From Porphyromonas sp. (GTDB lineage Bacteria; Bacteroidota; Bacteroidia; Bacteroidales; Porphyromonadaceae): 60,358 nt of DNA. Position numbers and translations under genes: made by a program. Below are positions 1,861 to 39,535 of this stretch, one piece after another; the stretch's first letter is position 1, and every line of letters begins with the position of its first letter. The notes under the pieces are model-generated. The model was not told the origin of the DNA and searched no databases. It saw nothing but the letters and a program-made list of their open reading frames with translations. Where the stretch lies: assembly GCA_030529525.1 (NCBI GenBank), contig JAUMWS010000001.1:1-60358 (forward strand), read 5' to 3'.

Positions 1861-2062
1861 AAGCCGTTCATAAAAAGAGATAAACAGCTAAAGGAGTTTG
1901 TCTGAAGCTTGAAAATATTCCCAATCAAGGCTCTATTTATAGCAATCGAAGCTTGCGGTGCAGAAACCAAAGCTTGAAGCGTACAGATAGAGCCTTGACT
2001 TTTACCTCCAAACCGGTTTGCTCCTATTTTTAAACCCGTTTAGAGAAATCTTTATGGCGGTT
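1861..2062. repeat. ~202-bp dyad-symmetric intergenic element, copy E1
   Basis: 17-bp units resembling AAATCAAGnCTTGATTT at 1922, 1943, 1964, 1985. 8-bp boxes at 1861/1883/1905 and 2011/2033/2055. Confidence 0.75.
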
Positions 2063-9254: not shown

Positions 9255-10253
9255 ATGAAAATACTGATTTACGGCCCGGGTGTTGTCGGTAGTACCTACG
9301 GATGGCAACTCCACCGGCAAGGACACGAAATATCCGTACTTGTCCGAAAGGAGAAGTATGAGTTGTACACCAAAGAGGGAATACACATCAGCTGTCAGGA
9401 CTTTCGGGAAGGGAGGAAGAACGTTTCCAAAATTATTTTCAGACCTCATGTCATAGATGAGCTGCGAGCGGATAACGACTTCGACTATATTATCGTCTCC
9501 ACCACCAAGCTTCAAATATCGGAGGTACTTCCTGTCTTGAAAGAGAGTGCAGGCAAAGCAAACATCGTCTTCTTCCAAAATATTTGGGACTATTTCGATG
9601 AGATTGCCGGCTATCTCCGTCCCGAGCAATATTTTTTCAGTTTCCCGTTTATGCTCGGAGGTGGTCGGAAAGAAAATAAAGTACAAGCAACCATCTCCGG
9701 ACTCAGATTTTCTCACACTCCCATAGGGGAAGCGGACGGAACGGTAACCGATAGAGTTCGCGCTTTTGCCGACATTTTGGAGAAAGCCAATCTGAAACCT
9801 CGCATCTGCGGAAGGATATTGGATTGGCTTATTTCTCACTATGCCGTGGCTGCCGGACTCTCCGCCGGAGTCCTCTGTGCAGGAAGCGCAGAACGGTTTG
9901 TGCAGGATGCGGAGAGCATGAAAAAGGCTGTTTATTGCATTAGAGAAGGATTCAAGGTTTGTCTGAAAAGGGGTGTAGACCTCAGCATAGAGCCCACGAA
10001 CAGGCTGCAAGGACTTCCCTTGTGGCTTCTTGTGCCGCTCGCAAAAAAAGTTTACTCCAATGAGGGTTTGCAATCAATATTCAATGGTCATATAGAACAC
10101 GCCCCCGACGAAATTCGTCAAATGCTTGACGACATGATAGAGAGCGGCAAAAAGTATGGTGTAGAGATGCCCCACTTCATTGAAATAAGGGAAACCATAC
10201 GCCGCAGAGATAGCCAAGCTATTCATGAAAAACAGATGGAGCAATCCTCTTAA
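9255..10253 (+). CDS. Ketopantoate reductase (ApbA/PanE)-family oxidoreductase
   Basis: Rossmann MKILIYGPGVVG, DYIIVSTT, FFQN. Start set at ATG 9255. Confidence 0.75.
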   Translation: MKILIYGPGVVGSTYGWQLHRQGHEISVLVRKEKYELYTKEGIHISCQDFREGRKNVSKIIFRPHVIDELRADNDFDYIIVSTTKLQISEVLPVLKESAGKANIVFFQNIWDYFDEIAGYLRPEQYFFSFPFMLGGGRKENKVQATISGLRFSHTPIGEADGTVTDRVRAFADILEKANLKPRICGRILDWLISHYAVAAGLSAGVLCAGSAERFVQDAESMKKAVYCIREGFKVCLKRGVDLSIEPTNRLQGLPLWLLVPLAKKVYSNEGLQSIFNGHIEHAPDEIRQMLDDMIESGKKYGVEMPHFIEIRETIRRRDSQAIHEKQMEQSS

Positions 10254-10454
10254 TCACGTTCAGAAATAAAAAAGATCGGGATAAAAAGCTTCTCCGAACC
10301 TGATAAAAAGAGAAAATCACGCCTTGACCGGAAGAAATCAAGATGCAATTTCTACGGAGCAAGGCGTGATTTGTAAAAGTAGGGCTTTGATTTGGACTTC
10401 CAAACGGCTCTAACAAAAGATCTGTACAGCTATATTACAACAATGCAATGCGTT
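10253..10454. repeat. ~202-bp dyad-symmetric intergenic element, copy E2
   Basis: 17-bp units at 10314, 10335, 10356, 10377. Boxes at 10253/10275/10297 and 10403/10425/10447. Confidence 0.75.
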
Positions 10455-10531
10455 AAAATGAAAACATTCGGGAGAGTTTGGCCCAAAAGAAAAGGAAGAA
10501 GAGAGGCACCCTGCCTCTATACCTTAATGGG

Positions 10532-19434: not shown

Positions 19435-20025
19435 CTCCGTAAGGAGAGTGATTTTTATATATTCCATACCGAAAAATGCTCTCTTTTCTACCCTCTCTCT
19501 ATTTGCTCCGAGGAGGTCGTTTTCAGAGCACTGCCGAATTGTTAAATCAGGGCTATTCTATTAACACTAATTTCGATAGCTGTTCAGCAAAAATGATAAA
19601 CGAGCATATTTTATCGGCTTAACGGGTTTAATTTTTCAGTGAACCCGTTTACTGATTTCATTTAACAGGTTTATCGAAAACGTTTAACCTGTTTAGCTTT
19701 TTGAGTGATAGCATTGATTATTAGGCTTTTATAGAATTTTCTTCTCAAAAGAGCATTTTGGGACGGATTCTTGGATTAGCAAATATTTAGATCTTAGCCC
19801 TTAAATATTCACAACTATTAACTCGAAAAAGCTTCATGAAACGGACTGGAAAAATTTTTTCTCCGAATTTTTAATTTTACGTAACCAATTCGATTTAAGA
19901 GACTTATCCTTTCATCTTAAAAACAGGAAGCAATTCCCAAACTTTTTTGCGAGAATTTTCGGCAAAATTTTCGGCTTCCATTTTTATATAAAAGCTCCCG
20001 CCGAAAAGGCTTTTTACTTCCTCCC
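19435..20025 (-). repeat. ~590-bp non-coding dispersed element, copy A (inverted relative to 33803-34396)
   Basis: Its reverse complement aligns collinearly with 33803-34396, including a 37-nt exact block 19675-19711 = rc 34119-34155. Confidence 0.9.
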
Positions 20026-26165: not shown

Positions 26166-26872
26166 CAGTCGTTCTCGGTGTGAGGGTTTATAAGTTCGTC
26201 CCAACTCTTAAATGAGAGAAAAGGATAGTGTCCGACCCCTTCGAGAAGCCTTGTAGGTACCTCCACATGTGTCCAGTAGCCCATCTGATTGGCAGTGGGA
26301 ACGATAAGATCTTTCTCTGCGACCCAAGCAAAATGAAAAGGAGAGGGCGCTCTGTCCGGAGCGTATTGCGGAGCAATGCGAGAGATACGGGCGGACTGTA
26401 CTTCAAATACGGAGGTCAACTCCTCTTTCAGATCTTCAGTAGATCGGGAAGCAAAGCTGTTGTAGAGTGCCGTCAGAGAGCGTCCGCCGCACATTCGTCT
26501 ATTGAATCGTTCTCTGTTCATCTCGTTCAGATTTGTCAGCGTAGCACGGAAAATCTCATCGGGAATGCCCCAATCGTCATGTGTCGGATAGGGAGTACCG
26601 CATACGGCTACCAGCTTTGAGTGTTGCGGCATATACTCTCGCAACAGTGAGATAGCCCACACACCCATACTCCAACCCACTACGGCGATTTCCGTGTACT
26701 CTTCCATGGGAGGCAACTCCTCGGGTGAAATCTCCCGATAGTCGTAAAATGCAAAATAGTCCGTCCCTTCCGGCAAAGAAAGATGCCCTACCGAATCGGG
26801 CGTAGAACCCCACCCTCCGAAGTAGAGAAGGGCTTTGGTGGATTTCGGACTCTTGATCTGCTTTATCTTCAT
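26165..26872 (-). CDS. bioG: Pimeloyl-ACP methyl ester esterase, BioG/DUF452 family
   Basis: YFGGWG, YDYR, GWSMG, GTPYP.HD.WGIP, HYPF; bio cluster context. Confidence 0.88.
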   Translation of the reverse strand: MKIKQIKSPKSTKALLYFGGWGSTPDSVGHLSLPEGTDYFAFYDYREISPEELPPMEEYTEIAVVGWSMGVWAISLLREYMPQHSKLVAVCGTPYPTHDDWGIPDEIFRATLTNLNEMNRERFNRRMCGGRSLTALYNSFASRSTEDLKEELTSVFEVQSARISRIAPQYAPDRAPSPFHFAWVAEKDLIVPTANQMGYWTHVEVPTRLLEGVGHYPFLSFKSWDELINPHTEND

Positions 26873-26914
26873 TTCTCTGATCTCTTATTTCTGTTCCTTT
26901 TATGACTTTCTGTA

Positions 26915-27116
26915 AAGCCGTTCGGAAAAAGTGCCGAACGGCTCTTTTTTCTCCACCAAACAGGTTAAAAACCCGACATCGAGCTTCGGGGAGTGGAAAT
27001 CAAGCTTTGGTTTGCTCTTTTCAAAGCGTGATTTCCACAAACCGGCTCTTGGTTTATAACTCTATTCGGCTTCATCGAAACTCTTTAAGGTGATTAAAGT
27101 ATTTTGTAATGCGGTC
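26915..27116. repeat. ~202-bp dyad-symmetric element, copy E3, between bioF and bioG
   Basis: 17-bp units at 26976, 26997, 27018, 27039. Boxes at 26915/26937/26959 and 27065/27087/27109. The left flank aligns ungapped with E1. Confidence 0.75.
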
Positions 27117-27144
27117 AAAAACATTTTCTCTCAGGCGATGTACA

Positions 27145-28284
27145 TCAAGCGGAGTGCATCAGCCTTAAAATGCTTTGCGCCAGACGCTCCACCTCCTGCT
27201 CGGTAAGAGCAGCCGAGAGAGAGAGTCGGACACGCTCGCCACCGGGAGGAACCGTAGGTTTGCGTATCGGCAACGCAAAAAAGCCATCGGCTCTCAACTC
27301 TTCTGCCATCCATATTGCACGCTCTTCGCTTCCTGCATGAACCGGCACGATATACGAAGAGAGAGGCAGAGCGGTACGCTCTTTCAGGAGGGCAACAAGG
27401 CTATTCAGATGCTCCCTCTGCGCTCTCATCCCGGACAAATGGTGCATCACGTGAAGCGACCATGCCGTACAAACCGGAGGAAGAGCCGTAGAAAATATAA
27501 GCGGTCGGCAGGTAGAGACCAGCAGCTCACGCACCTCAGCACTGCAAAGTGCAAACGCTCCCACACTGCACAAAGCTTTTCCCATGGTTCCGATGAGAAT
27601 ATCCACCTGCTCCAAAAATCCCAACTCCTCCACACAGCCAAGACCTTTTGCCCCTATCGTGCCTACGGCATGAGCCTCGTCCACATAGATGCAAATCTGC
27701 GGATAGTGCTGTTTGAGAGCCACAATATCGGGTAAAGGCGCAAAGTCTCCATCCATACTGTATAGGCTCTCAACCACAATCCATATCGTTTCATACTCGG
27801 TAGAAAAGCGGCATAGCTGTGCTTCAAGATCTTCAATACTATTGTGCTTGAACCTCCGAAACGGTCTCCCGGAGAGACGTATCCCGTCTATGATGCTGGC
27901 ATGTACGAGTCGGTCTGCAAGGATAAGCGTCTTATCGTCGGAAAGGGCAGGCAGAATACCCAGATTGGCATGGTATCCGCTATCGAACAGCAAAGCGGAT
28001 TTCCCCCCGTACAGATGAGACAACTCCTCTTCCAAAGCCTCATGTTCGGGAGAGTTGCCCGTAAGCAGACGAGAAGATGAGGAGGAGAAAGGCAGTTCCA
28101 ATGCCTGCTCTTTGAACTCATCTCTCAATCTTGTATCGGTGGAGATACCGAGATAGTCGTTACCTGCAAGGTTGATATACCTCTTTTCTTCCACCCATAC
28201 ATACTTTCCCTCTACTCTAAGCTTCGGGATGGTACGGTAAGCTCCTGCCTCTTTCAGGGTGTCTATTCTATCTCTGTACTGCAT
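27145..28284 (-). CDS. bioF: 8-amino-7-oxononanoate synthase
   Basis: NDYLG, SRLLTG, SGYHAN, HASIIDG, SMDGD, DEAH, GKA. Confidence 0.96.
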
Positions 28285-33802: not shown

Positions 33803-34396
33803 TGAGGGAAGAAAAAAGCTCTTCCAAGCGGGAGTTTTTATATAAAAACAGAGGTTGAAAATTTTGCCGAAAACTCTCACAGAAAAGTCCGGGAGTCGCT
33901 TCCCATTTTCAGAAGAGAAGATTAAACTACTCAAATCAAGACAATTACAGAAAATTCAAAATTCGGAGAAAAATTTTTCTCAGTCCGTTTCATGGGCCTT
34001 TTTCGAGTTAATAGTTGCAAATATTCGCACCCTAAAATCTAAATATTCACTAATTCAAAAATTGATACTAAAACGCTCCTCCAAGAAGGGAAATTCAATA
34101 AAACACTAAGAATCAACACTATCACTCAAAAAGCTAAACAGGTTAAACGTTTTCGGTAAACCTGTTAATTGAAATCACTAAACCTGTTCGTTGAAAAATT
34201 AAACAGGTTAAGCGGATAAAATATACTCATTCACCATTTTTTCTTGCCAAATATCTTAATAAACACAAATAGAATCGCCCGAATTTAACAGTTCCGCAAC
34301 CCTCTGAAAACAGCACTCATGAACAAAATAGAGAGAGAAGAAAAAGAGCCTCTCGCATCGGTATGGAATATATAAAAACGGCACTCCCACAAGGAG
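33803..34396 (+). repeat. ~590-bp non-coding dispersed element, copy B
   Basis: Collinear with the rc of 19435-20025. Shared blocks include cagtccgtttcatg, ctttttcgagttaatagttg and tcggtatggaatatataaaaa. Confidence 0.9.
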
Positions 34397-39054: not shown

Positions 39055-39226
39055 GTCTGATATCTTCTATGGATTATGTATGTGAATTAAATTCTATCCC
39101 GTAAGGCTTTAGCTCTTCTGCCATTGCCTTTTACAAAGATAACGAATATTTATCACAAGCAAAGAGCCTCTCTCATACACTTTCTCCGTCCTTCTTTTCG
39201 CCTCTATACCTGTATAAAAAGAGACA

Positions 39227-39428
39227 AACGGGTACAAAAGTTTTCCTTATCGTATTTATTTTCTCTGCTTAACGCATTCGCATCTCAAAATCAAAGCACA
39301 ATTGCTGTCATTCAAGCCTTGCTTTTCACCATTCAAGCCCCGACGTCCACAAACCAAGCCCTGAAACAAAACTTCCAATAGCTTTAGAGAAAGCTCTATA
39401 TACTTATAAGTAAAGATATTAACAGGTT
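39227..39428. repeat. ~202-bp dyad-symmetric intergenic element, copy E4
   Basis: 17-bp units at 39288, 39309, 39330, 39351. Boxes at 39227/39249/39271 and 39377/39399/39421. Confidence 0.75.
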
Positions 39429-39535
39429 TACGATGACCGAATAGAGGGTTGGCTTTTCTCCACAATCATATTCCTTCTTCTAAAGTGCAAGCATTTGTAT
39501 GTAAAATAAATCTGTATCATTACGACAATTCGTAA

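Follow-up and report, generated by a model that had tools for sequence, protein, structure and literature searches.

A ten-site palindromic repeat evenly spaced along a Porphyromonas genome, and a HU-HIG winged-helix protein as its candidate binder

The genome of a Porphyromonas sp. carries, between its genes, many copies of an element built as a lattice of ten palindromic sites. Positions within the lattice are under selection, copies are placed more evenly than chance, and the element is linked to a gene encoding a HU-HIG protein with a winged helix. We regard this element as a candidate site-specific chromosome organizer, set apart by an unexpectedly even spacing that extends over several repeat families and by a strong candidate for its binding protein. 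On balance, and with only a modest lean in its favor, we read the element as ten sites likely bound by dimers of this protein, which would wrap the DNA and, together with related repeats, would form chromosome boundaries about 10 kb apart.

Anatomy of the lattice

The first-pass annotation of the window, the whole 60,358-nucleotide stretch of DNA analyzed here, described a 202-bp element with a core of four units and three flanking boxes on each side. All four copies (at 1861, 10253, 26915, and 39227) were recovered, with core units and boxes at the described offsets. Each 8-bp box proved to be part of a palindrome that extends two bases further in both directions, to 12 bp, which brings the element to about 206 bp. 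We call this element family A, and three other repeat families described below B, C, and D. Sites of families A and B in the window are as follows, with no strand assigned to family A.

1859 to 2064, no strand: element copy 1, with three arm sites at 22-bp spacing (1859 to 1914), four core sites at 21-bp spacing (1922 to 2001), and three further arm sites (2009 to 2064)
10251 to 10456, no strand: element copy 2, core at 10314 to 10393
19443 to 20001, plus strand: family B copy (about 525 to 560 bp), filling the gap between element copies 2 and 3
26913 to 27118, no strand: element copy 3, core at 26976 to 27055
33828 to 34387, minus strand: family B copy, between element copies 3 and 4
39225 to 39430, no strand: element copy 4, core at 39288 to 39367

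A profile of 102 copies resolved the element into ten palindromic sites, arranged as three arm, four core, and three arm sites. Each core site is built on an inner palindrome of 11 bp around a single central base pair, and each arm site on a 12-bp palindrome whose center is 2 bp; the arm half-site is related to that of the core. The spacer between adjacent sites is 10 bp throughout, and these uniform gaps produce the successive periods read from the profile, 22, 22, 21.5, 21, 21, 21, 21.5, 22, and 22 bp.

Low identity combined with exact spacing, as described by the annotation, was confirmed for the four window copies, which are 46 to 51% identical in ungapped pairs at offset 0. Comparison with reverse complements gave 41 to 52% identity, and next-best offsets gave 36 to 43%. 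In a leave-one-out matrix, held-out copies scored 66 to 101 bits, compared to a window mean of about −105 (standard deviation, 18). Across copies, mean identity (0.50; standard deviation, 0.034; maximum, 0.78) equaled that of independent draws from the matrix (0.50; standard deviation, 0.030), and by this measure there are no recent copies among the elements of the source genome.

The mirror symmetry proposed for the element is a property of the consensus, made imperfect by a weak but reproducible polarity in the inner arms. This polarity had no relation to gene direction or to position along contig C5 of the sister genome, and the orientation bias that the annotation suggested looking for was absent in both respects. 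Self-complementarity within a copy (0.467) was not above complementarity between copies (0.472), the same was true for each of the ten units, and terminal inverted repeats matching within a copy were absent in the sense that single copies were no more self-complementary than copy pairs. This suggests that the symmetry serves recognition of double-stranded DNA rather than folding. There is also no Rfam match in the window at the gathering score, and on these two grounds a hairpin or structured RNA was rejected.

Each window copy occupies a different setting. Copy 1 lies in a gap between convergent genes, where separate terminator-like hairpins adjoin it, and has an orthologous core in the sister genome (C5:188180). 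Copy 2, also in a convergent context, begins where a PanE-like gene ends, at its stop codon, and the orthologous sister site lacks the element. Copy 3 fills the space separating a bioF-like gene from bioG, which runs in the same direction (orthologous core at C1:88059), and copy 4 lies between divergent gpmA and methyltransferase genes. The gap at 26872 to 27145, filled by copy 3, falls in an apparent biotin operon, so this copy is probably transcribed through. Successive A and B sites, six in all, are separated by 8.4, 9.2, 7.4, 7.2, and 5.1 kb, and the last 21 kb of the window (39430 to 60358), made up mostly of same-strand genes, has no A or B site.

Copy number, selection, and spacing

Scanning the source genome (G000; 1.87-Mb assembly, 89% complete) with a matrix from the four window copies, a check proposed by the annotation, yielded 103 copies, compared to 0 in the locally shuffled genome. 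A model with two to seven core units found 104 copies, 101 of them with four units. The sister genome (G015; 1.94 of about 2.2 Mb examined) has a median protein identity of 89.5% to the source genome, and four-fold synonymous sites differ at 0.495. It carries 78 copies, found on all six contigs examined and at one to four per 50 kb on C5 (the assembly is not closed); 60 of these have four units, 17 have five, and 1 has six. The annotation's rule of exactly four core units thus describes nearly all copies in the source genome but not those in its sister, and unit number across copies spans 3 to 6.

Genes flank 93 source copies on both sides, and 58 of these could be mapped to syntenic sites in the sister genome, 46 with the element and 12 without. 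All 45 mappable sister copies have an element at the source counterpart. The 12 missing sites, together with near-identical (young) copies in two other Bacteroidales genomes (G426 and G427), show that the element turns over, and the near-identical copies show that it does spread. Among 36 orthologous pairs, 9 were less than 60% identical, which points to replacement or conversion. Copies specific to the source genome were no nearer to other copies than shared ones were (P = 0.56), giving no sign of recent duplication. The comparison with empty orthologous loci recommended by the annotation revealed differences of about 130 to 420 bp with ragged limits, and no target-site duplication was detected among 180 copies (k = 2 to 9; no excess over shuffled pairing). 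With no target-site duplication and no recent copies in the source genome, the miniature transposon or minisatellite that the annotation had offered as an option is not supported for these copies. Few solo arms occur outside families A and B, at 8 places in the source genome and 2 in the sister.

Selection was evident in the 36 orthologous four-unit pairs, where divergence was 0.16 at the most informative positions and 0.38 at the least informative, compared to the 0.495 of four-fold synonymous sites. Because change between species is smallest at the informative positions, selection acts on them; this conservation and the constant lattice support the annotation's view that helical phasing is selected. 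An indel count from global alignments (8 versus 23 per kb) was set aside, since many of the gaps are alignment noise.

With genes called by a simple in-house caller, no copy was centered within a called gene in either genome. Convergent gene pairs flank 34 of the 93 placed source copies (compared to 108 of 1,190 intergenic regions) and 22 of 78 sister copies (compared to 133 of 1,299), and another 26 of the 93 source copies lie between divergent genes. Start codons lie at a median distance of about 190 bp, and adjoining genes are unrelated housekeeping genes. The canonical HU gene is closely followed by an element in both genomes (C109:20008-20209 in the source genome and C8:276037 in the sister).

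Family A is spaced more evenly than chance in both genomes. In the sister genome, only 2 of 72 gaps are under 5 kb, compared to 12.4 expected from a null with matching transcription-unit boundaries and gene orientation. Adding family B gives a coefficient of variation (CV) of 0.52, compared to 0.93 in the null, and all four families together form 192 sites at a mean spacing of 10.2 kb, with a CV of 0.50 versus 0.84 to 0.91 at random. Twelve gaps of more than 20 kb persist in this four-family lattice.

Family B has the arm-type boxes of family A at 21- to 22-bp spacing, four of them strongly conserved, in copies about 75% identical with short inverted ends. There are 76 copies in the sister genome and 101 hits in the source genome, 60 of which are at contig ends, many breaking the assembly. 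Families A and B do not occur together in any of 498 intergenic regions, and in only 2 of 77 cases was an A element within 4 kb of a B copy, compared to 16.8 expected. Many of the remaining A/B gaps in the sister genome are occupied by family C (22-bp tandem arrays containing A/T tracts, at 21 loci; for example, C5:195826, C5:918299, and C8:64551) or family D (16 loci with common flanks and several kinds of 21- to 22-bp tandem unit; for example, C5:123179, C5:327879, and C5:640489). A long family C array lies upstream of a HU-HIG gene at C5:919069. At mappable sister sites of family B or C where the source genome lacks that family, the source genome has the A element in 3 of 5 cases. In the source genome, the positions of families C and D coincide with contig ends.

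Among 25 genomes of the genus, the core pattern was found only in the source and sister genomes; a Porphyromonas canoris record (L094) also carries the element. A scan of GTDB (11 of 64 parts; 121 loci) showed that other Bacteroidales also have cores of four units built on the inner palindrome of the element. Five such genomes had 10 to 61 core matches each, with 22-bp arms that are clear in three (G425 to G427), weak in G428, and absent in G429. In a separate Bacteroidales sample, 13 of 401 genomes matched, and among the matches listed, true four-unit arrays occurred only in the source genome and in G043 and G179, which have three core matches each. Hits outside Bacteroidales were, among the matches listed, heptamer or other tandem repeats and not the element. 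Intergenic heptamer repeats in Halomonadaceae, Planctomycetota, and others (L040 to L160) fit a degenerate form of the pattern by chance, since 3 × 7 = 21. The literature searched, with subscription journals outside its coverage, held no description of the element or of HU-HIG binding sites.

A HU-HIG winged-helix protein as candidate binder

A multisite nucleoprotein scaffold was among the annotation's suggestions, and genome comparison both favors it and supplies a specific candidate binder. In the source genome and its sister, an element copy lies directly upstream of a homologue gene (C26:3934 in the source genome) whose product matches PF18291, or HU-HIG, at 77.4 bits (cutoff, 26.2). The copy at this promoter is the most degenerate in the source genome, with six units under the variable-unit model and a period score reached by 4 of 200 shuffles. 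In a predicted model, the protein has a C-terminal winged helix at residues 137 to 204 (Z score, 9.4; root mean square deviation, 2.1; 64 aligned residues). A homodimer through the HU domain was predicted with a score of 0.76 (best control, 0.00), a level that 20 of 30 solved pairs and 1 of 23 single chains also attained, and the runs had at least 94% of contacts in common and a pLDDT of at least 77; this score is likely owed to the likeness of the protein to solved HU dimers. A Foldseek search returned nothing at E values up to 0.001, the best hit being 4FMR.

Similar linkage recurs in other lineages. In G043 and G179, all three arrays examined lie about 60 bp upstream of a HU-like homologue gene, and in G425 to G428, the motif found genome-wide is that of the array upstream of one of the genome's own homologues. 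For a broader sample, 99 full-length homologue genes were grouped into 31 clusters at 85% identity, 3 of which lacked upstream sequence, and 400 bp upstream was analyzed in the remaining 28. A 21-bp upstream period exceeded all 200 shuffles in 26 of the 28 clusters, and a four-unit 21-bp array upstream beat the best downstream control (0.54) in 24 of the 28. Seven of these 28 clusters came from genomes chosen for having arrays; among metagenome clusters chosen by protein only (the best 80 of 549 hits), 15 of 16 exceeded the downstream control. Array motifs vary by lineage, and among 27 related proteins their similarity tracked one domain no better than the other (Mantel rho of 0.32 for both the HU domain and the winged helix), a result that does not single out the winged helix as the reader. 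The full-length protein is present in 5 of the 25 genus genomes, compared to 2 of 25 for the core pattern, indicating that the protein can occur where no genome-wide lattice of the source motif exists. No full-length homologue was found in viral contigs.

Other HU-HIG proteins show related arrangements. A second winged-helix paralogue in the source genome (C100:46-675), about 40% identical to the first, lies upstream of a topoisomerase I-like gene; it was rejected as a common binder, having no counterpart in the sister genome, and its upstream region is cut by a contig end. Arrays of 22 to 24 bp are often upstream in other HU-HIG subclades, and many paralogues have an array of their own (L462, L471, L476, L480, L484, L488, and L490 in G749; L252, L255, and L259 in G427). 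Such arrays may possibly represent a code of one site per paralogue.

Taken as sequence evidence, these associations make it probable that the HU-HIG winged-helix protein binds the element. If it does, an architectural role is likely. In the mechanism proposed here, dimers would bind palindromic sites two helical turns apart, with the winged helices reading core half-sites and the HU fold bending the DNA. Neighboring dimers would lie on one face of the DNA, bind cooperatively, and wrap it; filament-forming winged-helix centromere proteins and HU-type bending provide analogies. The element at its own promoter would repress the HU-HIG gene, matching protein level to site number. Wrapped complexes could then act between transcription units, as obstacles to the diffusion of supercoils or as loop anchors, so that the element and related repeats, about every 10 kb, would act as fixed structural boundaries. 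The least certain parts are the identity of the factor at the arm sites and on family B, which may be the HU-HIG protein itself, HU/IHF, or something else, and the route by which new element copies form.

Alternative explanations and relation to known systems

The main rival for the spacing pattern is a non-autonomous mobile element, whose target immunity could also yield even spacing. Mu and Tn7 combine target immunity with 22-bp end sites, and the three 22-bp sites at each element end could likewise be transposase sites, with an immunity shared by families A and B, which have arm boxes in common and avoid each other. Young copies in G426 and G427, the 12 sites missing in the sister genome, and the inverted ends of family B would also fit. 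We nonetheless judge mobility an unlikely explanation, given 180 copies without a target-site duplication, empty sites with ragged limits, few solo arms, and cores in G428 and G429 with weak or no arms. Copies are as divergent as independent draws from the matrix yet keep their informative positions, and families C and D fit the spacing lattice despite their different sequences. Nor was evidence found for the recombinase arm-and-core site that the annotation considered. Similarly improbable is binding by the HU-HIG protein for gene control, whether as a large regulon, as roadblocks between transcription units, or at decoy sites that titrate the protein. The arrays upstream of the HU-HIG gene resemble operators, some copies do lie between divergent genes, and one is inside the biotin operon. 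However, convergent sites, the most enriched class, have no promoter to control, the distance to start codons and the unrelated housekeeping neighbors do not favor regulation, and neither even spacing nor families that avoid one another would be expected of a regulon.

Strong sites for gyrase or another topoisomerase, where transcription accumulates supercoils, could act alongside the wrapped HU-HIG lattice that we prefer, although as an explanation of the element they seem distinctly improbable. The symmetry of the element, the A/T periodicity of its flanks, and its excess in convergent gene gaps are all consistent with such sites, as is the preference of gyrase for phased DNA downstream of transcription units, described in passages of PMC6379681. 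The gyrase motif given there is 130 bp long and degenerate with a 36-bp center, whereas the element has a sequence-specific core of 80 to 101 bp, whose length shifts in steps of one 21-bp unit and which differs from one HU-HIG homologue to the next. Palindromic units and variable unit number might also suggest a structured RNA, a cruciform, or a neutral minisatellite. These are largely refuted, and we give them very little weight, because complementarity is not raised within copies and conservation is position specific across the 36 orthologous pairs.

According to passages of PMC6907758, the barriers that split bacterial chromosomes into topological domains have not been identified and are usually called randomly placed. 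For this reason, an element with fixed sequence, even spacing, and a named candidate protein matters as a candidate domain barrier, one that can be tested in a cultured species. The proposal also predicts, for HU-HIG proteins, one binding site for each paralogue, and it suggests how PINSR and other orphan repeats might be read. A wider and more doubtful idea is that some Bacteroidales have nucleosome-sized particles, in which a HU-HIG protein would polymerize along a two-turn lattice of 200 bp; several repeat families, interchangeable and each paired with a HU-HIG paralogue of its own, would be maintained by selection at intervals of about 10 kb as sequence-encoded topological-domain boundaries, and PINSR and the rapid radiation of HU-HIG proteins would belong to the same system.

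Several described repeats resemble the element in part. BrickBuilt, a miniature transposon of Porphyromonas gingivalis, is likewise intergenic, occurs in the same genus, and gains or loses internal repeats as whole units. As described in passages of PMC4596501, its 19 copies have 23-nucleotide direct repeats (1 to 22.8 copies), a leader, a tail, and IS5-like ends, none of which the element has, and the annotation was right to separate the two by period and unit number. PINSR of Prevotella intermedia (PMC4755523) is closer in form, an intergenic repeat of about 190 bp with some 180 copies, no coding capacity, and no assigned function; section 3.4, other passages, and rows of Tables S2 and S6 of that paper mention no lattice or binder. 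PINSR primers matched 1 of 401 genomes (G749) and no viral contig. The nine primer-matching copies (L452 to L460) contain four imperfect palindromes in a fixed lattice with a 22-bp period, and they have short dyad ends. PINSR is thus like the element in being a fixed-length intergenic repeat with a four-palindrome core, but it differs in its 22-bp core period, in its motif and flanks (by inspection), and in having copies that are far more alike. None of the 9 HU-HIG loci examined in G749, out of 17 in all, had PINSR upstream.

The BIMEs of Escherichia coli, according to passages of PMC6907758 and PMC6379681, are intergenic palindromic repeats with about 600 copies, considered candidate supercoil barriers and gyrase sites. 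REP and BIME sequences are intergenic and numerous, as the element is. Unlike palindromes kept as stem-loops, the element has no excess complementarity within copies and shows no selection for hairpins, and it adds a ten-site two-turn lattice, a dedicated candidate protein, and underdispersed spacing. MatP, also covered in passages of PMC6907758, is a sequence-specific protein that organizes DNA through dispersed palindromes, the 23 matS sites, at one per 35 kb. A matS site is a single 13-bp sequence confined to the terminus domain, whereas the element forms 206-bp arrays on every sister contig examined. The candidate binder has the architecture of the winged-helix subclade of HU-HIG proteins (PF18291) in PMC5499826, passages of which call these proteins enigmatic, propose anti-element roles, and consider sequence specificity unlikely. 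In contrast to that view, the HU-HIG genes described here have lineage-specific upstream arrays that are amplified genome-wide.
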